A stretch of DNA of 61,640 nt, filler included, from Dugesia japonica (taxonomy: Eukaryota): the NCBI GenBank assembly GCA_001938525.1. It is 6 parts of 6 records of this genome, joined end to end, with 100 filler letters (N's around TTAATTAATTAA, not from the genome) between each part and the next. Parts side by side here need not be neighbours in the genome. Positions count along the whole stretch, not along the records: positions 46,223 to 61,640 come from MQRL01594632.1; 5 more parts are not named here. The stretch is one strand, 5' to 3'. A model generated the notes under the pieces. The model was not told the DNA's origin. It was given only the letters and a program-made list of their open reading frames with translations, and made no database searches. The translations under genes were made by a program, and so were the position numbers. Positions 3,403-59,880 of this stretch are shown in pieces. Every line of letters starts with the position of its first letter. The first letter of the stretch is position 1.

Positions 3403-3409
3403 ATCAAGT

Positions 3410-6031: not shown

Positions 6032-6061
6032 ACAATATTTTGTGTAATTGGTACATGTTAT

Positions 6062-17655: not shown

Positions 17656-17679
17656 GAGAAAACCAGCTTGGTTCACACT

Positions 17680-18861: not shown

Positions 18862-21333
18862 NNNNNNNNNNNNNNNNNNNNNNNNNNNNNNNNNNNNNNN
18901 NNNNNTTAATTAATTAANNNNNNNNNNNNNNNNNNNNNNNNNNNNNNNNNNNNNNNNNNNNGCTAAAAAACAGTTTTCTAGCAATATCTCTGCTCCAATT
19001 AATCCTGAAATTAAGGGGTAAGAAAAACTGTAAAGGATATGTATCAGGCTATCCGATTTTTGACATTAGAAAATGATGCCATCATCCAGTGGGTCGTCAC
19101 GAAGATTTTAAGATCGATCCAATAGTATCCTAGAATTAAAAAATAAGATAAAGAACAAAAACTCACCTGATGATCCAAAAATAGCTGCCAACAGAATTAC
19201 AGAAAAATCTGCAAAATTCCAGAACAGTAACACCACCACTAATAGAAATGGGTAATTTCAAATTAAAAATAATCAACCAACAAAAACGAAGTCGGGTTGC
19301 ATTGAAAAAACATATAAAAGACAACCGAATTTTGGTGATAAAAACAACATTTTTACTACGTTTTGCTTGTAATATTGCATCATATCATATAAAAGAAAAA
19401 GAAAACCAAACTCCTTACGGAAAATTATTTAATCTAGTACGGTAAGATCACCATTTTTACTCAACGAATTCTACTCATTTGAAATTCTAGAGAAGAAATA
19501 TTCTACTAATTACGGAAGAAGACTGGATAGGAGAAATAACCAGCTACGTGTAATTGAAACTTTTTCGCATTTTCTTATTTAAATCCTACCGTTGCAGAAA
19601 TTCTTAGCTTGCTAGTAAGTATTGTTTTGTTATTTTACGTTGTTAAATGATTATGTATTACAATAACAATAAATCTGTCTATGGTTTAATTTATGCGATG
19701 TGGTATTAAAATAAAATTAATTAATTAATTGTACTCAAGACGAATACATCAAATAAACAACTTTATACATTCCAATAAATTAAAATTGACNNNNNNNNNN
19801 NNNNNNNNNNNNNNNNNNNNNNNNNNNNNNNNNNNNNNNNNNNNNNNNNNNNNNNNNNNNNNNNNNNNNNNNNNNNNNNNNNNNNNNNNNNNNNNNNNNN
19901 NNNNNNNNNNNNNNNTCTCCTTGTGTGCATTAATCTGGAGAAAGTAGTCACAGTAAAAGTAGCTAATGTTCATTGACCCCCCATTGGCATACAGGTGAAT
20001 CAATTTGGAATGAATGAGTCAGCCTAGGGTGTGTGTACATTTTAACCGCATGCTAATCTATAATTAGATCAATAATACGCGAGTCAGGACAAATTGTAAA
20101 ATTCACATAATGATTTCTCCAACTGTCTGGAATAATTCGATACTGTTATGATATTTGGAAATTGTACTACCATCCTATGGATATTTCAAGACACATTTAC
20201 CAAACAGTTAATTATCTAAGAAAATTTCGGATATTGAATCGTCACAAATCAGCAATTATCAGACTGTCTAGTGCAGAAAGCGGTACAACTCCTCCAAACA
20301 TGCTATTTAATCCCGACAACCCGATTTAGGATGGACTAACTTATGATCTCTACTCTAGCAGTGTGAATCGGAAATATTTACTTACAGTTATATCGAACGG
20401 GCATCGTGCCGTTACCAACAGGAAAGTCTTGTGATTTTGTTTCCTTCTATCCACTGCATCAAATTTAGTGTTTCCGTCGATTATGTAAACAGCAAGTGTT
20501 CTCGAATCAAACGTCGTTTTTGTAACAATATAATTGTTTTAATCATTATTGATATCATAATTCCTTTGATTCGCTGATAATGCTATGAGTATATTTTTTA
20601 TGAGTGTTATAATCAAGATCTGTTTTTCTTACCATTAAAAAATGCAGCAACCTTATGTTGGGTTTTAATTTTCTTTTAAGGTTTAACTGATAATTACCAG
20701 GTAACGACGAATCATAGGTTTATTATCATTACGNNNNNNNNNNNNNNNNNNNNNNNNNNNNNNNNNNNNNNNNNNNNNNNNNNNNNNNNNNNNNNNNNNN
20801 NNNNNNNNNNNNNNNNNNNNNNNNNNNNNNNNNNNNNNNNNNNNNNNNNNNNNNNNNNNNNNNNNNNNNNNNNNNNNNNNNNNNNNNNNNNNNNNNNNNN
20901 NNNNNNNNNNNNNNNNNNNNNNNNNNNNNNNNNNTACTACCAATGCAATTGTTATTATACTTGTTATTAGCTATCGATATTTCCTATCATAATTGCCAAC
21001 TATTGTTATTATTAGCATTATAGTTCTCCGGATTGATTTAAGTATTGTTATTAACTGTGTTAATTATCATCAAGAGTCAATACTGTGAAGCGAATTACGA
21101 TTATCGTCAATATTCCTGCATATCGCTAATTCTTAATAAAGATATTCTCACTGTCAACAATTTTGCTATACCATGTAGCAACTCCAACGCTGGGTAATAC
21201 ATTGCAGTAAGTAAGGCTCACTCCTAAGGAAGTATGACCGTTCGTTTTATTTTTTTTAAACTGAACTTAGCTATAAATCGATAAGCCCATAATTATGTGG
21301 AGTAAACCCAAGTTTAATTTCGTATTATTTAGA

Positions 21334-24795: not shown

Positions 24796-24830
24796 AATTT
24801 GTTATTTCGACCTTGTCTTCGTCAGGAATT
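24796..24830 (-). ncRNA. Hammerhead ribozyme copy, slightly degenerate
   Basis: Minus strand reads AATTC-CTGACGA-AGACAAGGTC-GAAA-TAAC-AAATT. Confidence 0.6.
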
Positions 24831-24859
24831 AACTTTTAAAAAAATTGACTTTAAAAGTC

Positions 24860-24894
24860 AATTCCTGACGAAGACAAGGTCGAAATATCGAATT
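24860..24894 (+). ncRNA. Minimal type I hammerhead ribozyme
   Basis: AATTC-CTGACGA-A-GAC aag GTC-GAA-ATAT-C-GAATT, with an AUC cleavage triplet and intact stems I and II. Confidence 0.8.
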
Positions 24895-28700: not shown

Positions 28701-29730
28701 NNNNNNNNNNNNNNNNNNNNNNNNNNNNAAAATAGTAAATATTCATAGATGTAATAAAGATTTTAGTAAATTTGTAAAAAATGATTTTAATTTCCCTATT
28801 TTAATAATTGTTCAATTTATGTAAAATGGTTAATGACTTTAAATTAAATTTTGACTAAGGACTCGATCGACATTTTCGACTTCTAGAGACATCTGTTTGT
28901 GCATATACTAAACTAGATATTTTCTTTTCCCGCAATCCTCATTTCGTATATGAGAATAGTGAGGATTAAAAATATGCCGATCATACGACGTAGCCCGTAT
29001 TCCTGTGTAGTTTTCCAGGTGTGTTTGTGTTTTTTTTTGTACCCGCCGAAATTTTATATTTCAGAAATATGCTCGACTGCTAAAATAGGTTGTTGACCCC
29101 TGGTATAGATGAATATTCGTTAGGATTAATTATGATTTAAAACGTTTGATTAAGAATATTATGTTCAAAGTTTAAAATATTATAACTAAGTTGATTAAAA
29201 CTTCTTTATAATTATTAAAACATTTTATTTAAACAAAAAACAATTACGAATTTAAGTTGTAATCAGATTTATTTTTCATGCATTATCTCAGCATATATGT
29301 GTTCATTTTAAATATTTAAAATATTTTGTGTGGTGTATTTAAAATTTGATATTTACAAAGTCTAACGGTATTATTGCCATTGTTTTCAGTTGATAAGTAT
29401 TTAATAATAATGAAATTTGTTACAAAAACTGCCCATGCTAACTAGAAACTTGAATATACGTTATTTTGTTTGTGATAGTTGTATATAATTTGGTAAGATT
29501 TATGACAATATTTGAGATGAATTATAATTAATGACAACCGTATTGTGATGCATTTGTCAAATCAAAGCTAAAACCGCTGTATTAAAAAATAAATGTCATA
29601 ACTTGTTTCAATTGATTTAATATATAAACTTTTAATATAAATCTTTTCTTACAGAAATAATTCCCTTGTTTCCTTTTACACTAAAAAGCGTTTCATTCTG
29701 CTACCCAAAATGCAGTAGCACCGAAGAATT

Positions 29731-30062
29731 ATGCTACCGAAAAAACTTGATGCGCATAACTGTTTCAAGTCACGTTTTAATGGAATGAACATTAAAATTG
29801 CAATAAAAGAAAAGAAAGCTGACAAAAGAAAAGAGAAGTCCAGAGTTGCTGCCCAAATTCGTCGAAATAAAGAAAGTCAAACGTTAATATTATTGCAAAA
29901 TGCCTTACCCATAGGTTTACCAAGTCCAAATCAAATGTTGGAAAAGTCAATTGTCATTAGAATTGCAGGACAAACTTTGTTTCTTTTAAAAAATCTAGAC
30001 CAAGGTAAATATNNNNNNNNNNNNNNNNNNNNNNNNNNNNNNNNNNNNNNNNNNNNNNNNNN

Positions 30063-30108
<46 letters not shown>

Positions 30109-31964
30109 TCATTAAAATAAAAGCTTCGATCAAATTCATTTTGTTTTTGATAATATTTTGAATTTTCGAATTAGTTTTCGTCAGGAATTGACTTTTTTGA
30201 TTTATTCAAGATTTATGTTTACCATGGAAATATTTTTTTGAATTAATTCAATTAATTTAAATTTAATTATTTAATAATTATAAATTACATTGATTTTAGG
30301 AATATCTTCTTTAATTAGTAATTCTTCATCTTTTTTTCTGATCCTAGTGTTTTCCATGTTATGTGATGTTGTTCTAGAAATTTTATGTTTGTGTTGAAAG
30401 TCTTTGAAGGCTTCACTTTCTTTTTGTTCTTTATGTTCATCTCATCTGAAAAACGATCAATGGTTACGTCCAATAATTATTCTCGCAATAATTGTAANNN
30501 NNNNNNNNNNNNNNNNNNNNNNNNNNNNNNNNNNNNNNNNNNNNNNNNNNNNNNNNNNNNNNNNNNNNNNNNNNNNNNNNNNNNNNNNNNNNNNNNNNNN
30601 NNNNNNNNNNNNNNNNNNNNNNNNNNNNNNNNNNNNNNNNNNNNNNNNNNNNNNNNNNNNNNNNNNNNNNNNNNNNNNNNNNNNNNNNNNNNATTTACTT
30701 AAAATAAACGTTTTGTCTATTTATTTATAATTTATTTAGAATCATATGAAGTATTATTTTGTCTGATTATAATATATCCGTATCACAGCTAGAATTACTT
30801 AAAAATATCATTCACAAAAGATAGAAATAGCAATTTATTCTTATTGTTAAGAAACAAATAAGAATTATGATTTATTATGTACGTATGTATCATTAGGAAG
30901 ATTGTGTGCATTCTCCAGAGATATTTTGATGGAAATAAATGGATATATGTGTAAATACATATAACCGGATAAATATTACAAGAATTTGGCAAGTGTTTTA
31001 CAATTTAATTTCTCCGTCATTTTCTCTTTATACTAATTTACAATTCTATTTTCTGAATTTTTTATTTCATCTTAAAATTATTGATTTTAGAATACGTTTA
31101 ATTTCTTAAACTAAATGAATGAAACCACTGATTTCTTATAACTTATACATAGAACCTTGACTTTCATTTGTGTTACATTTCATAGCTAACGTTATTTTAT
31201 TAAATACAGATTTTGTCATATAGCTATTCAGAGCTGATAACAATCGGTGACCACAAGCTATGTTGAAACCAGTTTTATTAAAGAATTNNNNNNNNNNNNN
31301 NNNNNNNNNNNNNNNNNNNNNNNNNNNNNNNNNNNNNNNNNNNNNNNNNNNNNNNNNNNNNNNNNNNNNNNNNNNNNNNNNNNNNNNNNNNNNNNNNNNN
31401 NNNNNNNNNNNNNNNNNNNNNNNNNNNNNNNNNNNNNNNNNNNNNNNNNNNNNNNNNNNNNNNNNNNNNNNNTTATTATATTTTTATTTTTCAGTTCTCG
31501 GAATGAATGATTGGTTAACGGTGCCCTTAATTAGTTCAAATTTTCTGGCGTTTTTTACAGATAATATAGGCCAAATTGTTTATGCTAGTCCTAATATCCA
31601 NNNNNNNNNNNNNNNNNNNNNNNNNNNNNNNNNNNNNNNNNNNNNNNNNNNNNNNNNNNNNNNNNNNNNNNNNNNNNNNNNNNNNNNNNNNNNNNNNNNN
31701 NNNNNNNNNNNNNNNNNNNNNNNNNNNNNNNNNNNNNNNNNNNNNNNNNNNNNNNNNNNNNNNNNNNNNNNNNNNNNNNNNNNNNNNNNNNNNNNNNNNN
31801 NNNNNNNNNNNNNNNNNTATTTTTATTTTCCAGTTCTCGGAATGAATGATTGGTTAACGGTGCCATTAATTAGTTCAAATTTTCTGGCGTTTTTTACAGA
31901 TAATATAGGCCAAATTGTTTATGCTAGTCCTAATATCCAATCAGTTTTGGAACACCACCACTGG
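29731..31964 (+). CDS. Class I bHLH-PAS transcription factor (HIF-alpha/Sim/Trachealess-like), partial; exons 29731-30004 and 31834-31964
   Basis: bHLH RKEKSRVAAQIRRNKESQTLILLQNALPI...LEKSIVIRI ends at CAAG|gtaaat. A phase-compatible PAS-A-like exon FLAFFTDNIGQIVYASPNIQSVL ends at TGG|gttaga. Confidence 0.8.
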
Positions 31965-41780: not shown

Positions 41781-42092
41781 ATGTCTTCTGCATCAGAACA
41801 AGAACTAATTGATTTGGTTAATTAAAATAAATCTAAATCTGTAAATATTAATGGAAAAAACTATTGGATTGGTAAACAAGTTAGAAAAGAAATTAAAAAA
41901 ATGGGTAAAAAACATGAAGGTGGCTTTTCTTTCATTGCTGCAATACCAGATATAATTGCTAGTTTAGCTTCTACAGCCGGAATTAAAACTAAATTATCAA
42001 ATTTAAGAATTAAAGATTTTGAATCTGATCTTATTTTATTGATGATAAAATTAATCATTATGAAACGATTTATAAAAGATGGTCAAGGCTAG
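41781..42092 (+). pseudogene. Decayed homologue of the 51691-52134 core protein (Polinton family C)
   Basis: INGKNYWIGKQV...EGGFSFIAAIPDIIASLASTAG versus IDGKNYWISKKV...SGGFAFLAAIPAIIGALAGTAG. Confidence 0.8.
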
Positions 42093-42199
42093 ATACTTCA
42101 ATAAGATTAACAGAAATATTTATTGGAACAATTGATGTAATAACTGTAAATATATTAATATCTTTAGGAACTTTTGGAATTGGACCAAGTTTAATTTAA

Positions 42200-43190
42200 G
42201 ATTTGATATGGCGAAATTCAAAGGAAATGTACACTTCATCTGTATGTGGAATTATTCTTTTTTACTTCTGTTGGATATTTTGTTAATAATTCTTTGAAAA
42301 ATAAATGATTGTCATAACCAGATGCATTGTGAAAATAGAATGGTATAAATAATTCTTTAATAGATTTATGTTGTAATATACAATTTAAATGAATATACAA
42401 TAATCTTTAGAATAATCATGATTAAAACATTCTTTTTGATGATTAATTAATAAATCTTTACTGTGGTAAGAATTCATACAACATAAACACAAATGGTTTT
42501 TATTTTTATTAGTATTTGCAAAAACACTAACATTTCTACATAAAACATAATGCCCTTTGAAAAATAATAAATTACATCTATTTATTTCTGTTTTAGGATT
42601 ACTATCTTAATGAGAAATATAAACTGGATAGATTTTGGCTTTTTCAGTTACTTAAAATCATTTACTTTAAAATCATTTAATTTTTCAAATATTTTTACAT
42701 TATCAATGCTTGTGAGAAAATTCATTTGGTGTGGTCCGTTGGATTTTATTTTTAATTCGTTTAAATAAGGAATATAATTTGAAACTCTAGTTGGATCTCG
42801 TAATACATGTTTATGAGCTAAAATCGAATATAAAAAACAAAAATCATCTTTATTTTTAATATTAATTACACCTGGTTTAATAAATGGTAAATTTTTATAT
42901 GACGACCTAACTATTGATTGATATTTTGAAAGTTCAATTTTAAAATGTACAATACAATCCAAATTCCATCCACTTTCATTTTGATCTTCATCTTCAATAT
43001 ATCTTTATAGTTGATTTATTAACTCGTCCACAATAATTTTTACATCACTTTTGATAGTAATTTTTTCATAACTTGAATATGAATTAAATACTCTTTCTTC
43101 ATCTTCTTTAGTATAATTACAATTTACATTCAATCGTAACATTAACTTTTTCGAATAATCGAAATAAAGTAATGGTATTTTTGAATATTT
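42200..43190 (-). pseudogene. pPolB fragment of family C
   Basis: ESGWNLD, YKNLPFIKPGVINIKNKDDFCFLYSILAHK and LFIPFYFHNASGYDNHLFF are close matches to ORF 54164-56620. Confidence 0.9.
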
Positions 43191-45544: not shown

Positions 45545-46079
45545 GTACATTCGAAGATGTTTTTCCTATGAATTCAATTTTTGAATCACAAAGCGATATA
45601 GAGTTTTTTTATAAATGGATCTCAAACAGAACTTTTGGATTTCAATGATATTTTATTGTATATTAAAGTAAAGGTAGATGATAAGAATGGCAAAGATTTG
45701 ACTGATACAGATGATTCGGTTCCTAGTAAATATATGTTGCATACACTTTTTAAGGATGTTATTCTTTCGTTTAATAATTTCAAAATTGAAGATGGAAATG
45801 GATCTTATCTTCACGAAGCAATAATTGCAACTATAATAAATTATAATGGTGATAGTAAGAATATATTTCTTGCAGCAATATGATATGGATCAGAAGCAGA
45901 TAGGAAAATGTCTATTGCAAAATCAAAACAATTATCACTATGCTGTTCATTGTAACTTGATTTCATGGATCAACCAAAATACCTTATTCCCGGTGTCAAT
46001 GGTCATATTTGATTGAAGCGAACCGATGCTAACATTTGTTTGGAATCTGCACCCAATGCAACTAAATATGTATTACTAG
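45545..46079 (+). pseudogene. Second Polinton major capsid fragment (family A)
   Basis: Nucleotide sequence closely tracks about 4880-5415. It is interrupted at 46080 by a new terminus. Confidence 0.9.
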
Positions 46080-46122: not shown

Positions 46123-46239
46123 NNNNNNNNNNNNNNNNNNNNNNNNNNNNNNNNNNNNNNNNNNNNTTAATTAATTAANNNNNNNNNNNNNNNNNNNNNN
46201 NNNNNNNNNNNNNNNNNNNNNNAAAATAAAAACCGACCC

Positions 46240-47523
46240 CCCCTGGGTTTTGAACCAAGTAAATTACCAAAATAAGAAGGGTAAAACCCCAACAGTATCT
46301 CTATTTCAATAACATTAGTAATCTTTGGTATTGGGGTTTCTTTTTTTAAAAAATTAATACTTGATGAGACAATTTCAATTTTATTTCCCATTACTTCAGC
46401 GCTGGAAATATTAAGTTTTTGTTTATCTATTAATATATTAATTTTATCTACATCAGTTGAGAAAGAAAAAAAATGACTCGCACTTTTAACTTTTAGAGTA
46501 CCTTTAATTACAACCCAAAAAACTCCCTTAAAAACTCCAGTTATAGTAATTTTTAAGGAGTCTTCAACATACCAATAATAATTTTTTTTTCCAAATGAAT
46601 CTAGAATTATTATTAATAATCCATTTATTCTTATAAATTCAACATTAGTAATATTTGCATCAGGATAATTTTTAAAAGAATAACATAGAAGTTTTGTATT
46701 AAAAATTAAAAAACAAATATTAAATTTAATTTTTGTTTATTATGAAATAACTTTTCTATTTCTTTATATGGGAAATAATTATAAATTAATAATTTCAATT
46801 TATATAAAACATGTTCAGCTTTATTTTTTTTAAATTGTTGAATTAAATTATTAACTTTTTCANCATCNCTAGGNTGAAACCCATATTTTATATCACGAAA
46901 TTCGAGAAGTATAGGATTAAGTTTTTCTTCAAAATCTTTAATTTTTTTCTTAAGATTTTCAATAAAATATAAATTATCTAGATAAGTTTTCTTACTTAAA
47001 TTCTCACGTAAAATATTAATTTTATTTAATAATAACTTAATTTCCCCACTAAAATTTTCATTAAAAATTTCATTTAATTTAAATAATAAATCACTTTTTT
47101 TAAATGGTAAAACTGTTAATTTTAAATTTTCAATATCTGAATTTATTTTATTAAATGTTTCCTGATTACAGTTTTTTGTTAAATTTTTAATTTTATCATT
47201 NNNNNNNNNNNNNNNNNNNNNNNNNNNNNNNNNNNNNNNNNNNNNNNNNNNNNNNNNNNNNNNNNNNNNNNNNNNNNNNNNNNNNNNNNNNNNNNNNNNN
47301 NNNNNNNNNNNNNNNNNNNNNNNNNNNNNNNNNNNNNNNNNNNNNNNNNNNNNNNNNNNNNNNNNNNNNNNNNNNNNNNNNNNNNNNNNNNNNNNNNNNN
47401 NNNNNNNNNNNNNNNNNNAAATTTACTTTCATTTTTAGATTCTGAAATTCTAATTTTAGAATCAACATGTTTTATTAATTGTGAATTATTTACAGTGAAT
47501 AAACTTTCTCCAAATTTATTCAT
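46240..47523 (-). CDS. Hypothetical element C gene or genes beginning MNKFG; gapped and low quality
   Basis: ATG in TAAATG context and long minus-strand coding-like stretches broken by Ns and probable errors. Confidence 0.4.
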
Positions 47524-47575
47524 TTATTATAAATAAATTATACCCACGAAGTGGGTTTGTTATTACCTTAATATT

Positions 47576-47639
47576 TTAGATTTTAATGTGTCACATCCAG
47601 TACGATTAATCGTATTGGGAATGACACATTAAAATCTAA
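47576..47639. repeat. Intergenic palindrome, copy 1
   Basis: Perfect 18-bp arms TTAGATTTTAATGTGTCA / TGACACATTAAAATCTAA around the core TACGATTAATCGTA. Confidence 0.95.
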
Positions 47640-47655
47640 CATTTAACATTAATAA

Positions 47656-48084
47656 ATGTCTAATTATAATTTATTGGATTTCTTAGAAACTTTTGGAATT
47701 AATACAACTACAAATTTTGATTTATATTCCATAGCAGATTTTTTAGATCTTGATTTAGAGATTTGTATGAAAGATGAAATACCTAATTTAGCAGAAGGTA
47801 AACCTTCCCATTATATCTTTAATTATCAAAATGAAAATCAAAAAGGAACTCATTGGGTTTGTTATACTCAAGGATATTATTTTGATTCTTTTGGATTAAA
47901 ACCTTTGGAAAATATTGAGAAATATGTCAGTAAATATAATGATATTCAAGTTCAACATTTCGGTACAAATATTTGTGGGATTTTATGTATTTATTTTTTG
48001 TATAAGATTAACGAACGAAGTGAGTTTGGGGAAATAATTTTAGAGATGAAAAAATTGTATGATTTATTAATTCCTAAGATGTAA
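47656..48084 (+). CDS. Adenain-like cysteine protease, intact (142 aa)
   Basis: IFNYQ...GTHWVCY..YYFDSFG..P...YNDIQVQ...ICGILC. Confidence 0.9.
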   Translation: MSNYNLLDFLETFGINTTTNFDLYSIADFLDLDLEICMKDEIPNLAEGKPSHYIFNYQNENQKGTHWVCYTQGYYFDSFGLKPLENIEKYVSKYNDIQVQHFGTNICGILCIYFLYKINERSEFGEIILEMKKLYDLLIPKM

Positions 48085-48136
48085 ATGTGTAATTCCAAGT
48101 ACGATTAATCGTTTTTGGAGTGACACATTTACATCT
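48077..48136. repeat. Intergenic palindrome, copy 2
   Basis: AGATGTAAATGTGT..ACGATTAATCGT..ACACATTTACATCT. It overlaps the protease stop codon. Confidence 0.95.
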
Positions 48137-48186
48137 AAATATTTGAGATTTAACAAACCCACTACGCGGGTATAATTTTTATAATT

Positions 48187-48879
48187 TTATAATCTATATT
48201 TACGTAAATGAACTAAAATCGAAATCATCTCCTGGTTAAAATCAATTGTATTAAAATTCTCATCAACAACATTAAATCTTAAACTATCAATATATTTTGT
48301 ATTAATCTTAGAATAAATTGGAAATGATGGTTTTTCTATAATTTTAAATCCAAAAGGAACAGTATTTATTGGAAATGAATATAATAAATTTATTTGACTT
48401 GAATCAGCTTTTGAAGATTTTACATAATTTCCTTTAACNNNNNNNNNNNNNNNNNNNNNNNNNNNNNNNNNNNNNNNNNNNNNNNNNNNNNNNNNNNNNN
48501 NNNNNNNNNNNNNNNNNNNNNNNNNNNNNNNNNNNNNNNNNNNNNNNNNNNNNNNNNNNNNNNNNNNNTGAAAAAAGGATTTATCATCAAATGTTAATGT
48601 ATTTGTTATCTTCATGTAACATTTTGTTGTAGATGTATCTGCCGAAACTTCAATTCCATATTTTTCTAATTTAGCTGATATTTCTTTTATTTCATAAGCT
48701 CCAGGTTCAATTAAATCTTTTATATTAAATTTATTATTCAAATTTGTAATGTTAAAAATAATATTGTAACATGTAAAACAAATTAATCCTAATTCATATT
48801 CCGAATCTAATTCTAAAGGGAATTTTAAATCTAATTTTAAATCTTCTTCTTTTCCAACTATTAAGAATTGATGACTCAT
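48187..48879 (-). CDS. Minor capsid protein (penton)
   Basis: PLELDSEYELGL..F..YN.I.NI..NNKF, PGAYEI, LYSF..VPFGFKIIEKP..PIY..I..L...VDEN...IDFN.E.I...HLR. Confidence 0.85.
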   Translation of the reverse strand: MSHQFLIVGKEEDLKLDLKFPLELDSEYELGLICFTCYNIIFNITNLNNKFNIKDLIEPGAYEIKEISAKLEKYGIEVSADTSTTKCYMKITNTLTFDDKSFFXXXXXXXXXXXXXXXXXXXXXXXXXXXXXXXXXXXXXXXXXXXXVKGNYVKSSKADSSQINLLYSFPINTVPFGFKIIEKPSFPIYSKINTKYIDSLRFNVVDENFNTIDFNQEMISILVHLRKYRL

Positions 48880-48938
48880 TTTATATAAAAATAATTTAGG
48901 AAGCGAAGTTTCCTTTTGAGACCCTTTGGGGTTACTAC

Positions 48939-48990
48939 TTTAATGTGTCAATCCCAGTACGATTAATCGTATTGGAGATGACACACTAAA
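48939..48990. repeat. Intergenic palindrome, copy 3
   Basis: TTTAATGTGTCA..TACGATTAATCGTA..TGACACACTAAA. Confidence 0.95.
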
Positions 48991-49075
48991 ATGTAAAATA
49001 TTGAAAAATGTAAAATTTTGAAAAATGTAAAATTTTGAAAAATGTAAAATTTGAAAAATGTGAAATATTGAAAAA
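48988..49075. repeat. 16-17-bp tandem repeat, 5 copies
   Basis: AAAAATGTAAAAT(T/A)TTG units between palindrome 3 and a short hairpin. Confidence 0.9.
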
Positions 49076-49095
49076 CGACCGAGCATGTCGTTTTT

Positions 49096-50151
49096 TTATT
49101 TATCCCTCAGATAAAGTTTTTTAAGAGTTGTTTCAACCATTTTAATATTTGATGAGATCTTATAAAATGAAAACATACTGTTTAATACAATTGGATATTT
49201 ATCTACTAACCTATCAAATTTCATTAATCTTTGAATGTGTCTTATTGAATAATTAATTTTTCTTTCTTTTAAAGAATTTAAAAATTCTGAATTATTGTTT
49301 GATTTATATTTTAATGTTATTAATAATTCACCTAATTTTGATTTATATTTTAATGTTATTAATAATTCACCTAATTTTGAATAACCTATTAATGTCATTT
49401 TAGAAGATTTTACTATTACATCATTCCAACGAAAAATTTCATCTATTATTTGATTTTTATTAAGTGAGTTAAAATCCTTTTTAACAATGAAAACTGTTAA
49501 ACTTTTTTCTTCAGGATTATTTTCTGTTGCATTAAGAGATCTAAAAAAATCTTTTTCTTCTAATGGTTTCACAATTTTATTTTTAGGTTCTGGTTCTGAT
49601 TCTGATTCTGATTCTGATTGTGATTCTGATTCTGATTGTGATTGTGATTCTGATTCTGGTTCTGATTCTGATTCTGATTCTAGATTTTCAATAATTTTTA
49701 ATATTGACCCACTAGTTGAAGGTTTTGGATTTTCACTAATTTTTAATATTGACCCACTAGTTGAAGGTTTTGGATTTTCATTTTTTAATATTGATGCACT
49801 AGTTGAAGGTTTTGGATTTTCACTACTTTTTAATATTGATCCACTAGTTGAAGGTTTTAATATTGATCCATCATTTTTATTAGGATATTTAACAAGTTTA
49901 TTTTGAGTTTCATTTTTAGGAATCCAAATATGTTTTACTGGTTCAGGATTCTTTAGATTTTTATTAAAATTATCAATAGCTTCATTTACTCTACATTTAT
50001 TTTTTAACATGTAATTTACAACCTCTTTTACAGGTATTGTACTTTCTAATACAGATGTAAAATAATCTTTATCATCATTAAATTTAACCAAAAGTTCTAA
50101 ACTTGATACAACCCGCTCTAAATCATTACTAAGCATTAAAAGGTGCTGCAT
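49096..50151 (-). CDS. Hypothetical protein with KPSTSGSILK repeats, an (SE)n tract and a possible helix-turn-helix (DUF3102-like) C-terminus
   Basis: Intact 351-aa ORF with a TATAAAATG start; GELL..LK....F......YSIRHIQRLM pattern. Confidence 0.7.
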   Translation of the reverse strand: MQHLLMLSNDLERVVSSLELLVKFNDDKDYFTSVLESTIPVKEVVNYMLKNKCRVNEAIDNFNKNLKNPEPVKHIWIPKNETQNKLVKYPNKNDGSILKPSTSGSILKSSENPKPSTSASILKNENPKPSTSGSILKISENPKPSTSGSILKIIENLESESESEPESESQSQSESESQSESESESEPEPKNKIVKPLEEKDFFRSLNATENNPEEKSLTVFIVKKDFNSLNKNQIIDEIFRWNDVIVKSSKMTLIGYSKLGELLITLKYKSKLGELLITLKYKSNNNSEFLNSLKERKINYSIRHIQRLMKFDRLVDKYPIVLNSMFSFYKISSNIKMVETTLKKLYLRDK

Positions 50152-50185
50152 TTTATAAAGATGTCGGTTTAATAGTGTGCAAATA

Positions 50186-50250
50186 TTTAGATGTAAGTGT
50201 GTAATTCCAAAACGATTAATCGTACTGGAAATTACACACTTACATCTAAA
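50186..50250. repeat. Intergenic palindrome, copy 4
   Basis: 21-bp arms TTTAGATGTAAGTGTGTAATT / AATTACACACTTACATCTAAA around ACGATTAATCGT. Confidence 0.95.
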
Positions 50251-50284
50251 ATCTAAAATCTAAAAAACGACATGCATGTCGTAT

Positions 50285-51670
50285 TTATTTAGGGAAATAT
50301 TTACTCTTATATTTATCATAAATTTTATTAGAAATTAACCCCATAAATTTTAATTTTTTACAAGTTTTTTTAATATCATTTTCCAAATTATCATGACCTG
50401 ATTTTACAGCTGAAATTAATAATGTTAACTTTTCAAATAAACCTACTGGTCCAAGAGCACTACCAGTTTTTGGTTTTGGGGGTTGTAGTTGGGTTTGTAG
50501 TTGGGTTTGTAGTAGTGATTTTAAATAATTACAATATTCATTACTATCAGCTGTTTTTACTACATCTTTTAAATATAATTTGATAAACTTTTTACTTTCA
50601 TCATCAATTCCAAGTTCATTAAAGTTCCCCATAATTATATCTACAAATTCATCTGAATAATCATGAATTTTATTATTAATTGAAAAACATTTTTTACCCC
50701 CAAAGTTAAAGAAAATTATTTGTATATTTGAATTTTTATATGTTATTGAATTATATATTTTACCACTAGTACTCATTTTTACCATTTCTATAGTGGGGGT
50801 TATTTCTTCTGTTAATCTATTATTAATTATTAAATTTTCAGGTTTAAATGTGGTTGTATCTTTATCATTTAAAATTTTTATAAGTGTATCTCTCAATTCT
50901 ATTTCTGCTTGTGATTTTGGTTCTGATTTGGGTTCTGATTTTGGTTGTGATTTTGGTTCTACATCTGTTTCAAATTCTGTTGATACTTCATCATTAGTTG
51001 ATACTTCTGTTGTTGATGGTGGATTATCACTTTTTCTAGAAGCCTCTTTGAATATTTTTCTTTTGGGTTTCTCCTTAACAATTACTTTTCTAAATTTATT
51101 TTTTAATTTAATAACATAATCAGAATTAGTTGGAGCTGGTGTAATAAATTTATTTAAATAAACCTCAACATCTTCAGGTGTTTCTTTTCCATCTATATTT
51201 CCTAAAATTATTCTAAAAATTCCATCAGTATAAGGAATGACTTCTGATTTAAATAAGAAACTTTTATTNCCATNTTNTTACCAAATAAAATAAATTTTAT
51301 TTTGTTTTAAAGTTATTTCCATAAAACTTTTTATTTTATCAATCGCAGTAACATTTAATCTTGAAAATGTTGGAATAATTGTTTGAGTTAATTTACCAGT
51401 TGCATTAACATTTTCAATTGAATAATCTGGAATAAATGGTATTACTTTTTCATTTAAAAAGAATTTAGTTAAATCTCTAGTTTCTAATATTTGTGATTTC
51501 ACTGAAATGTTATTAATTGCAGAAATTGTTGGTTGTTGTAAAAATGATAATTGACTTTGTAATTCTCTGAATTCAATAACATTACCACAGAAAAAATTAT
51601 TATAATTTTCTTGAGATTTTACTAAAGCTCTTAATTCTCGAATTCTTTCTTCAACTTGTTTTGTATTCAT
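50285..51670 (-). CDS. Conserved Polinton hypothetical protein, probably one gene of about 460 codons
   Basis: ORFs 51278-51670 and 50285-50896 share a frame. The only stop I see (51278-51280) sits beside N calls. The C-terminal LFEKLTLLISAVKSGH..ENDI...L..MGLI pattern is typical of a conserved Maverick protein. Confidence 0.7.
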
Positions 51671-51690
51671 GCTTTGTGTTGGTTATTTTC

Positions 51691-52134
51691 TTAAGTAGTT
51701 TTATAGGGATTTAAATAAAGTCCATCACCTTGTTGAATTATTTGAATTCCATCTTTAAAGTTTCTAGTTAAATCTTTCATGTTAGGATCAATATTTTTAA
51801 AGTATTTATGAATTGCAGAACCTTGATATGGGTTGAGATAAATACCAGAACCAACTCCTTTGGAAGCTTCGCTTCCTAAAAGTGCAGCTTCTCTTGAACT
51901 TTTTACGGTACTTGCAATTCCTGATGCGATTCCGGCTGTTCCAGCGAGGGCACCGATAATTGCCGGGATTGCGGCCAGGAATGCAAATCCCCCAGAAGTA
52001 CTATTACTTTGACGAGATTTGGCTTCATTTTTAACTTTTTTACTAATCCAATAATTTTTTCCATCTATTCGTACCGTTCTACATTTATCAGAATTTATTA
52101 ATTTTGTTAAAGATTCTTCTGTAATATTACTCAT
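51691..52134 (-). CDS. Core / membrane-active virion protein, likely a protease substrate
   Basis: GG|FAFLAAIPAIIGALAGTAGIASGIA hydrophobic helix and repeated GxG(I/L)YLNPY motifs. Confidence 0.7.
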   Translation of the reverse strand: MSNITEESLTKLINSDKCRTVRIDGKNYWISKKVKNEAKSRQSNSTSGGFAFLAAIPAIIGALAGTAGIASGIASTVKSSREAALLGSEASKGVGSGIYLNPYQGSAIHKYFKNIDPNMKDLTRNFKDGIQIIQQGDGLYLNPYKTT

Positions 52135-52213
52135 TTTCTATAATAAAAATTTTACTACAAATTAAATAAACATGGTAAATTATTTCTCTCTTCAATAATT
52201 TTATTTATTAAAT

Positions 52214-55200
52214 CTAATCTAAAATGCCATTCATTACATTTTCACATTTATATTTATTTCCATGGGGCCATCCCCGAATTCCATTATCTTCTAATATTAA
52301 TTTATCACTGTAAGCATTTAACCCAACTTTCTTTTGTTCAGTTAATTGTATTTCATGAAATTTTGATTTCAATGTATAATTTGTCCCATAAAATGTTTTA
52401 CTTCTATTTTTTAAAACTTCATTATAATCTTTTATTGAAAATTTATTTGAACTTTGGAGACCTTTATTTCTTGATGCAAATTTAGTTTCACTACTTGTTG
52501 ATGGTGTTGTAGTAGCAGTAGTAGTAGAAGTAGCAGTAGTACTAGGAGTAGTAGTAGTATAATTATAAGCATAATTTTTAGGTCTTATAAAATCAGCTTG
52601 AATTATTTCTACATTGGGTAATTCATCCTTCATTTGGAAAAGTTGGTTTCCAAGTAAACTTTCAAATTTTTTTAAATTTTCTTTACCTTTTATCTCAATA
52701 AATATTGAATCTGTATTTTTTATTATTAGTGGAAATCCACAATTGAAGGATCCATCTTCAGTTTCAATATCATAAACATCTTCATAACCTTCTCTTAAAA
52801 ATCTAACACTTTGCACATTGGTTTCAATCTCTTCTTTAGATTCTATAATTTTAAAATCTTCTGTGATAATTGAATTCTCGCTTTCACTACAATAATATGC
52901 TTTAGCTAAAGATATTTTATCTGGAAATGTTTTATTTAATTCATTAATTTTTATATCTGGATTTATTAATTTGTTGTGAAGTAATTTTGTTTCAGATGTT
53001 AAATCTATTGGTTTTATTTCTTCACCTTTATCATTTAATAATGAATGATCTTCTGTTACATCTACGATTCCCATTTTAGTTCTTACTCTATAAATCTTTT
53101 TATTTGTTGTGTGCTTAATTACTTTCTTTAATTTTACCCAATTACTCTTTGTCCATATTTCATAATTTTCTGGATAAGAATAATATTTCTCATCATAATT
53201 ATTTCTCTCATAATTTTGATTGATTTCTGAAATCTTTTTTATTTCAACTTTATTACCCCTCTTTAGGATTATTGGTGTGTCGGCTGTTACAGAATCAGTA
53301 TAGAGCAATTTATAATTTTCCCGTCCAATTAATGGATCTAATTGATTATATACAAAATTATACATTATAAATTTTGAATGTTCTAAAATTGTGAATCCAA
53401 TATAAGGAAATTTATTGTAATATAAAATTGATTTTGTCATGTGCATTGCTGCTACAGTTGCTTCATTTGAACCATTTGGTGAAAATATTTTACTGGACTT
53501 AAATGTTAGTTTTGATGCAAACTTTTGATAATCTCTATCAGTGTCTACAATTTCAACATCACATCGATTTCTAATATTTTCATGGGTTTTTCCATAATAA
53601 GCATTTAACATTAATTTATAAATATGATCACCTGATGCATCATTATTTGCTTTTGCTTCATTTCTCAATTCTATTAATTTTAATACATATTCTTTAAGCC
53701 AAGTACTCACTTTAATTTTTATCTTTTTATGAATCTTTGTTATTTTCATTCCTAGATTAAGATATAATTCTAATGTTGATCCAAGGGTTACATAATTCTT
53801 TTTATCAAATTGATTTAGAATTAATTTAGTATTATCTTTCCCTAATTTTCTATCAAAACTTTTTTGATAATTACTTAACATATGTTCTTGAATATTTACT
53901 TTTTCTGGACATAATGGAAAGTATTTAGTTTTCTCATGAATCTCAGGTGGATATTCTAAATCAACTTCATAAACAAAATTATAATTATCTCCTGGTTTTT
54001 CATAAGTTAAATCTTCACATTCTTCCATTTCACCTGTTGGAAGTGGCATTGTCATACAAGATGCATAAAGTGAATTTACATCAGCATATTTTATAAATCT
54101 ATCATCAAATGCATCTTCTGGAATATTTTTTCCTTCCTTTATTAATTTAAGGAAATCTTCAGCTTATGCTTTATTTATTTGTCTATAAGGTTCAAAACTA
54201 TCATGGAAGAATACTTGTCTTTCACTTAATTCAGAAGATACCCCTCCTCTAATTCCAGATTCAATTGTTAAACAATTATTATAAGTTTCTGGTTTTATAT
54301 ATTTTAATCTTACCCCTGTCTTATAATTACAAACTTCCCAAGCATATCCTGGCATTGAATATGAATAAGCTGGATCTAGTTTAAAAAATCCATTCATACA
54401 TTTATTTCTAAATTCTTGAATATAATCTGCTAGAATTAAAACATCAAGCTTCATGTAGTGTAACATGTATTCATACATATTATTGAAACTTAAATAATCT
54501 ATTAAAAATTTATCATGTTCATCATTAGTTATTTCTTTTTGTTTTAAAGTATTAAAGAAATCTTTTCTAGTTGGTGGTTTTGGTGATTTTAATAATTTCT
54601 CAACTTCTTGAATATTGAGACCTTTAACATATTCATAGGGGAATAAAGCTTTTTTAGGTCTTAATCTAAATGAATTTAAGATTGGATGATTATGAGATTG
54701 ATTTAATAAATCACCCATTTTTTCTACTGGAGTAAATGGAATTAATCTGTTGGAATCAAGAAATCTAATATTTCCAAAATGGAATGATATGTAATTTTCT
54801 GAACTATGAGGAATTATTTTTTTTACTTTTCCTGGAAATTTTGTCAATAATTCTATGAAAAATAAATGAGCATCATATCCTGATAAATTATGAAAATAAA
54901 ATGGAATAAATAAATTTTCACCAGAAGATTTATCATTTAAATTACATTCTCTACAAGTCCATCCGCGAAATCTTCCATTAAAATGATTATGATCAATTAC
55001 TGGATCTTTAACTTTTTTATCACAATATCTACATTTAATAAGTTCATTGAATGGAGGGGGATTTCCTTCATAATATTTTTTTAATTTATTATTTTTAATA
55101 TAATTTATTTTTTCATTCATCTCATCTAAAAACTTAAACATTTGCTTATGAGTATCTTCACTTGAAAATTCATAGTATTTACTTTCTAACAAACTTGGAT

Positions 55201-56620
55201 AAGAAGACTTCACATAAATTCCTAATGCCAAAGTTCTTTGTTTTTTAGTAATTGTATTATTCCAAGCTTCAAAATCCCCAACTATGAAAAATGGAACTTT
55301 ATTTTTCTGATAAAATTTATTGAATTTATAATATTCTTCTTTTGGAAATTTAATATTATTTGGTTTGTGATGAATACAAAGATTTTGATGTTTCTTTAAT
55401 ACTGCTTCACTTGAATAACAATTCATACATCTGAGACATAAATGATTTTGATGTCCACTTGTTGTAAAGAAAACATTAACATCTCTACATAAAACATAAT
55501 GATCTTTGTAAATTAATAAATTACATTTCCTTTCATCTGGTGAAGGTTTTGGATTGAAATGTGAAATATATAATGGTTCAAGTTTTTTAGTTGAGTTTAC
55601 TGAAAAAACATTTACTTGAAATCCATTCTTATCTTCAAATTTTTTAACATCAGAAATATGTAATGGAAAATGTAATCCATCATATTTTAATTCACTTAAA
55701 TATTCAATATAATTATTTACTCTTGTTGAATTATTCACTACATATTTATGAGCTAGGATTGAATACAAGAAACATTTATCATCCAGATTTTTAATGTTAA
55801 TTACTCCTGGTTTTTTAAATGGTAACTTTTTAAATGTTGCTCCAACCAATGATTGATATTTATGTAACTCAATTTTATAATCAACAATATTTTCAAATGA
55901 CCATCCTGATCCTTCTCTATCTACATCTTGAATATAATTTTCCAATTCTGTAAACATTTCATTTACAATTTTTGTTATTTCAGTTTGAAAAAGAATTCTA
56001 TTATTATTAGAATAAGAATCAAATTCTTTTTCAACAAGTTCATTATTAATCGTTTTTCTATATCTACCTTTTACTGTCATGTTTACAATAATTTTTTTAG
56101 TATAGTTAAAATATTTAGTAACTATTTCTTGTACTTCATTTTTATATATTTTAATATCTTGAATTATTTCTGGAGTTGTTTCTTCAACTTTTTTTATCAT
56201 TTCTACTTTACTATCCTTATAATGTTCAATTTGATAATTTGTATACATCCTTAAAATATCTCTAATTTCAGGATCATATAAAATTGCTTCATCTTGTGGT
56301 AATTCATTAAATGCATCTATATTTAATTTTTGTTTGTGGGAATCAGAATTATAATGTGATCTTGCAAGACTTTGATATTTAAATTTTTTATTACAGGGTG
56401 AACAATGTAAAGGAAAAATTGATGAGTTTCCCCATGATGTAGAATCTAAATGATTTTGTAAACCTATTTGTGTATTGAATAATTTATTACATCCAACTTT
56501 TGGACATTTTATTCTTGTTGATGGGGGTGCACAAATTCTTGAATTCTCATGACCTCTTAAACCTGCTTTATTTTTAAAAATCTTATTACAGTGATCACAT
56601 TTAGGTGCTGAAGTTGTCAT
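52214..56620 (-). CDS. polB: Protein-primed family B DNA polymerase (about 1468 codons) with zinc fingers, vOTU-like domain, EndoVII-like insert and an intein; one in-frame TAA at 54164-54166
   Basis: The two ORFs share a frame, and the gap reads AEDFLK...KYADVNSLYASC (motif A). Also GDFEA, FHNLSGYD, FLDS, Y..LDV, GIRGG, KLMLNAYYGK (motif B), YTD/TDS (motif C) and PKNY. Confidence 0.95.
52715..53293 (-). mobile_element. Mini-intein (193 aa) in pPolB motif C
   Basis: YTD | SVTADTPII ... VDVTEDHSLL (block B, TxxH) ... VYDIETEDGSFNCG (block F) PLIIKN | TDSIF. Excision restores YTDTDSIF. Confidence 0.95.
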
Positions 56621-56749
56621 TTTTCTAGAGAGTTAATTTAATCACGTAGTTATTTTTATTTTTTGATTTAGATTTATGATTATTTTATAATTTTTATTTT
56701 GGATTTTATTTTATAATTTAAAAACCCCATTCCGGAATTGGGAGATTTT

Positions 56750-57045
56750 ACACCACTACTACTACTACATTTTTTTACTACTACTACTACTCTTTTTTTA
56801 CTACTACTACTCTTTTTTACTACTCTTTTTTTGCGATTTTGCGATTTTACATTGTCTTCCCTAGGGACGACATTTTTATTTTACTACTTTTTTTACTACA
56901 TTTATTTTTACTACTTTAAGGTTTATAAATAATGTGTCTTCCCTAGGGACGACATTTTAACATTTTGGATTTGGATTTAGGATTTAGGATTTTGGTATTT
57001 GACATTTGACATCTGACATCTGACATTTTGACATTTTCAGATTTT
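56750..57045. repeat. (ACT)n-rich repeats, two copies of a 20-bp near-palindrome and short tandem repeats; probable subterminal region of element C
   Basis: CTACTACTAC tracts, TGTCTTCCCTAGGGACGACA near 56853 and 56936, and (TTTAGGA)/(TGACAT) runs. Confidence 0.7.
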
Positions 57046-57138
57046 TTAATATTTATCTCAATATTCTACATTAATATCTTATTTTCATCATTTTATTTTA
57101 GTAAATTTATTCGAAATATCGAATTCATAAATCTCCCA

Positions 57139-57251
57139 AGTAATAGTATATTTGAGGTTGCAGATTTGCGCCCGGCCGAAGATTGCCGAACCGTAAGGTG
57201 AGGTAATCGAAGGGTGGGTGCTTGATCTGCAACCTCAAATATACTATTACT
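57139..57251. repeat. 113-bp foldback element with perfect 27-bp arms
   Basis: AGTAATAGTATATTTGAGGTTGCAGAT / ATCTGCAACCTCAAATATACTATTACT enclosing nested GC-rich stems. Confidence 0.9.
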
Positions 57252-59199
57252 ATCATTGAATATAAATTAATTAATTTACTAACAAGAATCGGTTACAGCA
57301 TTATAACAATCTGGCTCAATGAAATAAATATAAAATAACAGTAAAATTAGTTTCTAAATAAATATTTATTAATTTATTAAAATGAAAGTTAAAAGCAAAA
57401 TAAATGTGTATTGTAATAGAAATATTTTATTTTCAGTAAAGAATATTTTTCAATATAAATTTCTTTGAAACGTTTATTGCATCTTTCAATTTCCGTATTT
57501 ATTCTAGTAGAATAGAATGTCAAGAACTACAATATATTGTTAAATATGAAGCATTCATACTACAGATTCATTATTCGGTTTTAATACATGTACATGTCAG
57601 TCTAAATACATATGCTCAGGGTAGTATAAATATACATGCCTAAAGGTATTTAATTATAGGTATTTCAAGAATAAGACAATAATTAATTTTTTTATAAGTT
57701 AATTAGTTTAAATAAATTAATTATAATTGTCATGCATTGTTTAAGTAACAGTCTTGTTTTCCGTCCAAACCATTACATTATCTTCTTTGCCGTACAACAA
57801 TCCAACAGAACGAATCCAGTTTGAGTAGCTCTAACTAGGCTAAGCTCGATTATCAGTATGTACATCTCTGGTAGCAGTGCTTCCGACTGTTCACATCTGG
57901 CCATATTTGAACACCACTACAAGTGTTTTAAAAACAATCAGTCATCATCGTCAATAATTGACTAAAATCAGATCCGAAAAATAGTAAGGAATTCCAAAGT
58001 AACTTATTCAATACATGACATTTTTTATATTATTTAGCACATATTAGACATTTTTGACACACTTTTTACCATATTAATGTAACCTTTAAATATAAAACCT
58101 TTAAAGAAATAAATATAACTTTTAAATTCCTTTCAGCAAGGAATGCCGGAAAAGAAAGATACCAAAGTGTTTCACAGGTGAACAGGTGAACAAAAAGCGA
58201 AACAAAGTACTGGGCAAAAATTATAGAATGAACGAAAAAAATGCAGAATACCAGGAAGATAAGACACGGCAAGCTTAGAGAACTACCCAAATAGGCAGGC
58301 TCCGCTAGATGGGGTGATAGTCGAAGCCATCAACGAAGTAATGTGACTATGATACCCCTTGAGAACGAGAGGGGTGAATTGGATCAGTAAGTGGCAGAGA
58401 AGTATATAAATTTTTGTAGAGAGCAAGCTTTCGGACAAATGAAGAAAGAGACAAGGGTGCAATAGAAGTAATTGCAGATGTGACAGGGACGATAATACAC
58501 CCAACATCACATTTAAGATGGTTGGACAGGTTTTCAAGTGTCTTTTAGATACAAGAGCCAGGAAAAACGTGAAGAGTTGGAATATAGCAAAGAAGTTAAA
58601 AGACAAAGAGATTGTCAATTGTGAGAAAAAGCCTGAGAGGCGCAAATATAGTAAGCTGCAGACAATAGGTATAGTGACGATATAAGTAAAAATGGAAGAC
58701 ATTATGGAGAAGGTTAAATATATTATAGTCAGATTAGCGACCCTAAATATTATCGAGAGGTTTGAATTACAAAGGCAGTTCAGATTTGTGTTACGAAGGG
58801 ACCGCCGAGAAGGTACAACAAGCGGAGAAGAGGGGAGCAGAGAAGAGCATATATGCATTTTAGAAGCAAAATTTCGTAGACGTGTTAGCCATAGATAGGG
58901 TGAGGGTAGAGTTAGTTAGTAACATCATTTATGGCTGAATTTATGGTTGACAACTAGAATATCAGACGGACACACCTGGCAAAACATGTGATCAGAACGA
59001 CAAGCAATTTAATATGTCAGATCATTCAGACAAGCGATGAATTTGGAAGCAAAAGTTAAGGTGACCATCACAAATCTATACGAGAACAAAATCATAAGAG
59101 AATGCAGATTCCGATAGAATATGTCAATTATCTAAATCTGGAAGAAGGACAAACATGAGGTAAGATTATGTTTGGATTTCAGGCAAATTAATGTGGGTT

Positions 59200-59880
59200 C
59201 TTAGATTTAAAAGATTTGGTAAATAGTAACAAGTGTAAATGTAAATAATTAATAGAAGAAATTATTGGATTGGGACAGAGTTTAAAAAAGAAATAAAAAC
59301 TAGAATATAAAATAATACAAATGAAGGTGGTTTTGATTTTCTTGCTGCTTATCTTGCTATAACTGCTGGTTTGTCTGAAGCAGCATGAGTAGCTATTGAA
59401 ATAGCTTCTACAATTAGTAACTTTAGAGAAGAAAATAAAAAACCAAAAGAAATAGAATTGGTGGATATTCAAAAACTAAATTTAACATCTGATAAAACAG
59501 CTTATGAGAAATAGCATCTGATAAAAAGTTTTTGATAATAGTAATAATACTAATTACTCGTTAACCACAGAATTTCGCTCGTCACATAGCTTAGGTGTCT
59601 ATCTTAATCCATACAAAGGATTTGCTTTACATAAATATTTCAAGAATGGTTTAGGAATAGAAGCACATGTTATAAAGACTAGTTTATAACTCAAATAAGA
59701 TATTGAAAAATTAAAAGAACAAGTAACCAAGGGCTTATCATTGGGTTCATCACAGGGTTCAAAGAAATCTTCCACCAAGAAAGCTAAACATAATAAGCTT
59801 GTTTTGTAAGCTCTAGCAATAACAAAAAAAATTAAAAAAGGAGTAAAAAAAACAAAGCAAGGAGATGGGTAAAATTTGAG
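59200..59880 (+). pseudogene. Heavily decayed third copy of the family C core protein gene
   Basis: NEGGFDFLAAYLAITAG..A..IASTI, GVYLNPYKG.ALHKYFKN and KQGDG all match 51691-52134. Confidence 0.7.

Follow-up and report, generated by a model that had tools for sequence, protein, structure and literature searches.

The DNA analyzed here is a window of 61,640 nucleotides from Dugesia japonica (assembly GCA_001938525.1), in which six contigs are joined by 100-nt linkers. Its last contig (MQRL01594632.1) begins with an element, here called C, that runs from the contig edge at 46223 to about 57055. Some 10.8 kb of C is visible. The contig edge, next to the assembly linker at 46123-46222, truncates it and leaves the remainder (major capsid, ATPase, integrase, and the far end) outside the window, and a profile search found no major capsid, packaging ATPase, or rve (retroviral-type) integrase in the visible part. 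Read on the minus strand from the visible end inward, the genes are a DNA polymerase B of the protein-primed type (pPolB), a core-like gene, two open reading frames (ORFs) around single Ns, a 351-aa ORF, and a penton gene, followed by a plus-strand protease gene and a coiled-coil-like ORF. The pPolB gene (52214..56620, minus strand; 1468 codons) encodes N-terminal C2H2 fingers and an EndoVII-like HNH insert, and a mini-intein of 193 aa (52715..53293, minus strand) sits in polymerase motif C (YTD / S...KN / TDS). The frame is interrupted by one in-frame TAA at 54164-54166. Contigs from two DNA runs of separate studies, one of which may be the assembly's own source, show no differences over this region and have single-copy depth there; since both runs confirm the TAA, this copy of C is really broken.

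A first-pass annotation had described a PolB intein of nucleocytoplasmic large DNA virus (NCLDV) type at this position, and the intein itself is real. It matches TIGR01445 (E = 7e-13), and its best sequence match in the PDB is the split intein NEQ068 of Nanoarchaeum PolB. Its structural model, from a 35-row alignment, scores 94.5 in the predicted local distance difference test (pLDDT), has the Hint fold, and returns PDB inteins in Foldseek. The class 1 intein residues are present (Ser1, a TEDH block B, the block F Asp, the Lys-Asn end, and Thr+1), the residues needed for splicing do not vary across the alignment, and the penultimate Lys is found likewise in several relatives; C's intein is predicted to splice itself out after translation. 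It has no homing endonuclease, and a LAGLIDADG domain is retained in four full aligned relatives (P0002, P0023, P0037, and P0051). Against viral proteins, the 50 Foldseek matches listed name no poxvirus, and nine of the top 10 are named for giant viruses of protists (Pithovirus, Megavirus, Marseillevirus, HaV01, and Klosneuvirus among them).

The best 120 of 1075 sequence matches to the intein comprise 104 RNA-primed family B polymerases, 11 topoisomerase II proteins, and five Polinton-type pPolBs. Among the matches listed, C's nearest intein is that of P0002 (66% over the splicing blocks), which resides in a polymerase of a different class. A tree was built from C and 89 of 220 extracted inteins (all the Polinton inteins and those with a C-terminal GFP signature, plus the top-scoring others, with the truncated P0086 omitted; 148 columns, bootstrap not fully settled). 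In this tree all five Polinton inteins group in a single clade (100/99) that joins with the GFP-signature group (95/93), deep within the PolB motif-C inteins. When 22 GFP-signature inteins from fetched loci were added, the Polinton clade persisted (100/91), now inside that group (99/92). Of 20 contigs in the viral collection that bear this C-terminal signature, 18 are giant-virus bins. Giant viruses (Mimivirus, HaV01, and bins; listed in PMC5784728) have PolB motif-C inteins that share with C's the site, Ser1, and the Asn-Thr junction, and one group also shares the GFP-L C-terminal signature. C's intein differs from them in that its host protein is the protein-primed polymerase of an animal-genome element and in that the Polinton inteins form a clade of their own. 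As a statement of ancestry the NCLDV-type label stands, but the nearest inteins sit in other Polintons and not in giant viruses.

The distribution of the intein is patchy. None was found in the best 120 of 2257 extein matches, the two nearest (39 to 41% identity) included, and none in 19 related loci. On a 41-row polymerase tree, from which four loci with broken or short frames were skipped, intein presence needs at least four changes, but each of the five intein-bearing polymerases of C's class belongs to a single 11-row subclade (support 100); the other 30 rows, among them the named insect protein P0225, lie outside it. An earlier polymerase tree, rooted on a very long branch, served for counting changes only. 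Filled and empty alleles also occur side by side. The cluster of P0051 has 136 members, on contigs of up to 1 Mb; among the 15 listed, seven are filled (1537 to 1539 aa), five are empty, and three are fragments left unscored. Before the insertion site, three of the empty alleles are 98 to 99% alike to filled ones and two are 94 to 95% alike; after it, the figure is 91 to 93%. The C-exteins are 97 to 100% alike within a class and 91 to 93% between the filled and empty classes, a difference that is expected if flanking sequence moves together with the intein. In D. japonica itself, each DNA run has one contig that lacks 589 nt and has 10 other letters instead, a net difference of 579 nt, which is the intein's length; depth over the intein equals depth over the exteins, so most copies of the family are filled.

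Because the Polinton inteins form one clade nested in giant-virus PolB inteins, are patchily distributed, and exist as filled and empty alleles, we infer a single donation with later spread from Polinton to Polinton. In terms of sequence relationships, the Polinton intein descends from giant-virus PolB inteins, was likely donated once, and probably then spread among Polintons, and it is very likely that an ancestor of C's polymerase lineage shared a cell with a giant virus. As a separate observation, P0001, P0003, P0008, and P0011 are giant-virus-type polymerases with two or three inteins each.

Next to the polymerase, a core-protein-like gene (51691..52134, minus strand) has LYLNPY repeats and a hydrophobic stretch that we take to be pX/mu-like. 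It was recovered with a profile of four related core genes (E = 2.5e-4), and its protein has no database match and no homologue among 121 candidates. Further inward lie a 130-aa ORF that matched no family (51278..51670, minus strand) and an open frame (50285..51277, minus strand) with a weak match to a gene kept in seven related Mavericks (profile E = 1e-4), whose 5' part is obscured by single Ns at 51270-51279; the two may be one gene. The 351-aa ORF (49096..50151, minus strand) has Ser/Glu repeats and matched no family. The penton (minor capsid) gene (48187..48879, minus strand) contains a 130-N gap; it matches seven of the 19 related loci (profile E = 1e-23), and its structure model is of low confidence (pLDDT 33.5). 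An adenain-type maturation protease (47656..48084; PF00770, E = 0.006) is the sole gene on the plus strand, all others being on the opposite strand, and matches 12 of the 19 loci (profile E = 5e-28). Beyond it, a K/N/E/L-rich, coiled-coil-like ORF without assigned function (46706..47523, minus strand; start TAATAAATG) spans an assembly gap. At the other end, subterminal repeat arrays (56730..57058) comprise AGTAGT runs, two copies of a CCCTAGGG palindrome, five of TGACA, and five of GGATT. The likely element end lies near 57055, where the visible terminus has an AG start and AGTAGT runs; the opposite end is off the contig. The TGACA, GGATT, and CCCTAGGG arrays, together with one ACGTG that stands 25 nt ahead of the polymerase start, may bind host factors; neither an AP-1 nor an E2F consensus occurs in 56730-57050. 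None of the eight window proteins of C was found in a collection of 15 billion proteins or in PHROGs, phage and plasmid collections gave no match, and scans of the viral collection with single C proteins found nothing.

C's penton, protease, and core proteins had been thought to differ in type from those of elements A and B, two other Polintons in the window. The penton indeed has no BLAST similarity to the pieces of A and B, and the protease is 27% identical to A's, but the type matches that of ordinary integrase-bearing relatives: 13 of the 19 related loci carry an rve integrase. A protease tree placed C without starred support, and one profile (gene233) that drifted onto pentons was disregarded. 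Directly after B's structural genes, at 41781-43166, lie a decayed C-type core gene (plus strand) and pPolB (minus strand), 49% identical to C's, so the type is old in this genome. That the genes are intronless is true as read from DNA, but it is uninformative, since this is normal for Mavericks; intact vertebrate Mavericks are described as intronless in the available text of PMC8097293.

Features of Mavericks/Polintons that we found in C are the pPolB (here with its in-frame stop), the protease together with a minor capsid protein, and integration in multiple copies. Animal Mavericks with the divergent "Beta" class of pPolB (adintoviruses), as portrayed in the portions available of PMC8502044 and PMC8097293, have the same pPolB, adenain protease, penton, and core-like gene, are likewise intronless and integrated, and mostly survive as decayed copies. 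We would apply the Beta label to C's pPolB on the definition given in that part of PMC8502044. C has its EndoVII-like insert in common with the insect proteins P0123 and P0225. Unlike Beta Mavericks, C has a motif-C intein, a separate subclade, only 40% identity to its nearest relatives, and four repeated intergenic palindromes. The polymerase is in the 11-row subclade, apart from the named insect Maverick, and the penton and protease match Maverick loci (L163 to L179). One of these loci, the Maverick-type L172 (1-16394), is nearly complete: it has an ATPase, a penton, a capsid, a pPolB, and a protease, but no integrase match in the part examined.

C is integrated in the host genome in multiple copies and adjoins single-copy DNA. 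On 51280-58200, 18,551 and 17,158 contigs of the two DNA runs align at 85% identity or more, mostly at 90 to 95%, part of them belonging to a flanking repeat after 57500. Summed contig depth, which is no measure of copy number, is about 1,000 to 21,000 in 23 of 25 bins of C per run versus 10 to 20 for single-copy contigs, and it drops from more than 1000 to about 40 at 57055. Our reading is that the diverged copies of the family number in the tens to hundreds. In each DNA run, a single contig links 52152 to 56964, that is, the pre-core region to the terminal region with the whole polymerase skipped, and is likely from an internally deleted copy.

Four imperfect palindromes of about 60 bp, with stems of about 26 to 30 bp and a 4-nt loop, occupy four of seven gene junctions in C. 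H1 (47577..47638) is flanked by two divergent starts, with ATGs at 54 and 18 nt; H2 (48077..48138) lies between convergent stops and contains the protease stop codon in its left arm; H3 (48935..48994) and H4 (50185..50250) are at tandem junctions. pPolB, the core gene, and the 130-aa ORF are without a palindrome. The first-pass annotation had reported long hairpins downstream of stop codons. All four are real (z scores of -6.8 to -10.4, with none of 200 shuffles reaching that stability in each of six folds), and H2 to H4 stand 0 to 102 nt past a stop, but H1 follows none. The four share an invariant 15-nt apex, and all four exact apex matches in the window are in C, inside 2.7 kb and between genes. 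Changes on both sides of the stem occur at 6 of 26 pairs among the four copies, and the strand favored by G-U pairing is independent of the transcribed strand. Each palindrome has a small GC hairpin near it. One (47542..47556) adjoins H1, and its inverted copy lies 3' of the penton stop (48157..48171); a third, with A/T tracts on either side, is immediately 3' of the stop of the 351-aa ORF (49070..49096), and a fourth, with a T tract, is immediately 3' of the stop at 50285 (50267..50282). We give roughly even chances to the idea that the palindromes are duplicated copies of one cis-acting site that punctuates transcription of close-packed genes. Two other leads were dropped: nothing indicates that the protease gene was recently inverted between H1 and H2, as arms match their own partner arm and not the other hairpin, and the single match to the hairpin pattern in the viral collection, on an unrelated-looking contig, was judged to be chance.

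The starts of C had been likened, through TA(A)AATG, to poxvirus late promoters. That motif does stand at four of the eight starts (p = 0.013, against all ATGs of C, as for the other p values on C alone), but the strict TAAATG stands at two (p = 0.18), and relatives without the intein often have A-rich starts too. The 19 such relatives have TA(A)AATG at 24 and AAATG at 75 of 194 starts, and eight AT-rich relatives have them at 16 and 35 of 82 (p = 0.07 and 0.02 versus C), these counts including mis-called starts. AAATG is found at seven of C's eight starts (p = 0.0005); five fit TA(T/G)A3-4ATG, a motif picked post hoc, and two have within 25 nt a TCTA, the Mavirus promoter motif. TAAAATG occurs at 5 of 15 starts in L172, and TAAATG occurs at 9.7% of 651 ORF starts in giant-virus contigs that bear related inteins. 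The vaccinia initiator is given as TAAAT in the available text of PMC6211774. On these counts, C's start contexts are largely generic.

The reading that we favor, and hold to be moderately probable, is that C is a broken Maverick/Polinton copy with a giant-virus-derived mini-intein spread by homing, whose transcription by host RNA polymerase II (pol II) and silencing by the host involve no helper. A full-length intein with a LAGLIDADG endonuclease would have cut an empty motif-C site in a Polinton polymerase and been copied in while both genomes occupied one cell. It would then have passed between Polinton lineages, even across two deeply different polymerase classes. C's lineage would have lost the endonuclease, the intein persisting since it would splice out and since its precise loss would be rare. 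The palindromic site may be recognized by its invariant apex sequence and its stem and may work in either gene orientation, and family C is likely transcribed by host pol II and silenced by the host. To judge from its relatives, the intein likely records past contact with a giant virus and not present dependence on one.

Several observations weigh against this reading. In one scan, none of the 19 relatives had a repeated palindrome family, though in six of them a palindrome or two of unrelated sequence turned up. Where a gene of C ends at a palindrome, as four do, no AATAAA precedes the hairpin's far end (one has ATTAAA within the stem), while the hairpin-free pPolB has one, although an AATAAA is expected by chance in only 45% of 150-nt stretches. 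Three stops are followed by small hairpins with T tracts, of which 8 sites were found versus 1.8 ± 1.4 expected (counting each strand separately); these resemble the terminators of yeast cytoplasmic elements (PMC6211774). A-richness is more uniform among C's starts than among those of the controls (p = 0.01 to 0.07). C's polymerase does not appear nested among the named insect Mavericks, and its subclade may encounter giant viruses more often. L171 and L177 are Polinton-type loci with pPolB and integrase in giant-virus genome bins, by association or by binning error. Finally, pol II use is unsupported by RNA: in the portions read (about 6% for X12 and 25% for X16), with no host control gene, 35 and 62 reads fell on 51280-58200, none at 99% or above and 34 and 62 of them partial only. 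Peaks at 55074-55113 were poly(T) partial matches and were rejected as an artifact. In favor of the reading, the Polintons of a planarian are reported to be derepressed and to gain H3K4me3 when a nuclear PIWI protein is lost, and no giant virus plays a part there, in the text of PMC8532177 available; this result for Polintons as a class may extend to family C. As planarian Polintons are PIWI-silenced as a class, silence is expected with or without a helper. The lack of transcripts of C in the portions read of the two RNA runs would suit a helper-dependent element, but it suits host silencing just as well.

The first-pass annotation had itself proposed that C is an integrated virophage-like parasite, which would stay silent until infection by a cytoplasmic giant virus. 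In this proposal, which we consider unlikely, a giant-virus RNA polymerase would start at TAAA(T), 3' machinery would cut the hairpins, and particles may protect the host. A fuller version seems similarly doubtful, in which C's Maverick subclade replicates in giant-virus factories, got its intein there, and uses the helper's hairpin 3' signals and TAAA initiators; were it true, the animal genome would carry a sizable arsenal of provirophage type, directed at a giant virus not yet known. Such a helper would suit the nesting of the intein in giant-virus PolB inteins (with its signature in giant-virus bins), the concentration of the intein in C's polymerase subclade, the long stems with 4-nt loops after three of four junction stops, the both-side stem changes, and the want of reads of C in the two RNA runs. 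The stem changes, however, are also explicable by arm-to-arm copying inside a palindrome, which yields both-side changes as well. Nor do the starts fit readily, with TAAATG at 2/8 in C and scarce even in the intein-bearing giant-virus contigs. One palindrome follows no stop, three to four genes have no hairpin, many copies of C are old and broken, no poxvirus stands among the intein's listed fold relatives, and no helper virus has been shown. The Mimivirus 3' hairpin signal is not conserved in sequence, by the available account in PMC4402537; C's palindromes are, and so they depart from that signal. The three signals that had been taken as one helper's mark point to different groups (protist giant viruses, Mimiviridae, and Poxviridae). 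Neither present helper dependence nor an antiviral role is supported, the intein having come via other Polintons.

In the available text of PMC6723459, Mavirus and Sputnik have promoters and hairpins in common with their helpers. They resemble C in pPolB and integration (Mavirus) and in hairpins after genes (Sputnik), and may do so in silence without a helper. Unlike C, they have a known helper, a protist host, and, in Mavirus, the helper motif before all genes, while C's structural genes are Maverick-type. C shows neither a helper motif before most genes nor an unconserved hairpin at most gene ends. The Polinton-like viruses (PLVs) of entomopoxviruses (AHEV_PLV1/2, CBEV_PLV1, and Ca_PLV1), compared by description only, have a protease and a mu-like core gene, and two have PolB; one of their lineages is a divergent Maverick branch, and one is integrated in an insect, but unlike C they are found in occlusion bodies (from the portion available of PMC11296320). 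The entomopoxvirus precedent holds for co-occurrence in occlusion bodies, but dependence is not demonstrated in that portion. The main text of PMC11296320 has no mention of "intein," "promoter," or "TAAATG." The yeast cytoplasmic plasmids pGKL1/2 are, in the text available, Polinton-derived (PMC11071308) and have TAAAN initiators and a stem-loop with a U tract near stops, but unlike C they encode their own RNA polymerase and capping enzyme, lack capsid genes, and are not integrated at high copy (PMC6211774).

It is more doubtful again that C needs, or profits from, something other than a cytoplasmic virus, either a nuclear large DNA virus or transcription or replication factors encoded in its missing part, the palindromes then being DNA sites such as an origin, enhancer, or resolvase substrate. 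Baculovirus homologous regions are an analogue for palindromes in this role, and the invariant apex, the orientation-independent placement, and the indifference of the G-U-favored strand to transcription would all suit a DNA-binding site. No such factor gene lies in the 10.8 kb seen, however, and the palindromes are confined to one 2.7-kb cluster. Adintovirus virions are reported from insect cell cultures in the part of PMC8502044 available. That the hairpins are host fold-back repeats inserted between the genes of this copy, with the signals coinciding by chance, is quite improbable, because all four apex matches of the 61.6 kb fall between genes within 2.7 kb of C, H2 contains the protease stop codon, and no target-site duplication was seen around the palindromes.

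What is new on the reading of C as a Maverick/Polinton copy without a helper is an intein in many copies within an animal genome, in a protein-primed polymerase, and in a Polinton-specific clade. Among the papers listed, in a search that did not extend to subscription papers or Repbase, we found no description of an intein in a Polinton/Maverick polymerase by title or start of abstract, though the sequence files of PMC8502044 may hold some. The available text of PMC10748475 has no mention of "intein." Endonuclease inserts of Polinton pPolBs were suggested to stem from intein invasions, with no splicing domain named in the part of PMC11071308 available. The eukaryotic inteins surveyed in PMC5784728 are from fungal and protist nuclear genes, plastids, and giant viruses, and its main text, as available, mentions neither "Polinton" nor "animal." The intein shows at the molecular level that DNA of Polintons and of giant viruses came together, and it offers a marker by which gene traffic among Polintons can be traced. 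It also opens to testing the question of whether any animal Maverick relies on a large DNA virus. Were the helper reading true, provirophage defense would extend to animals.

A few features lie outside these arguments. A C-type core gene remnant (59594-59647; 78% over 18 aa) stands 2.5 kb past C's end, and at 57139-57252, also outside C, is a short single-copy insert with inverted ends of about 28 bp and a GC-rich folded middle, resembling a miniature inverted-repeat transposable element. By the contig edge, an inverted repeat with a long loop (46279-46345) has no relation to H1 to H4. At 24810-24880 is a near-perfect long hairpin whose arm, repeated at 18447 and 30135, is a dispersed repeat. 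Major-capsid fragments of elements A and B, 83 to 87% identical, lie at 4941-5414 and 45606-46078, and an open frame at 29719-30120 resembles the start of a bHLH-PAS host gene.

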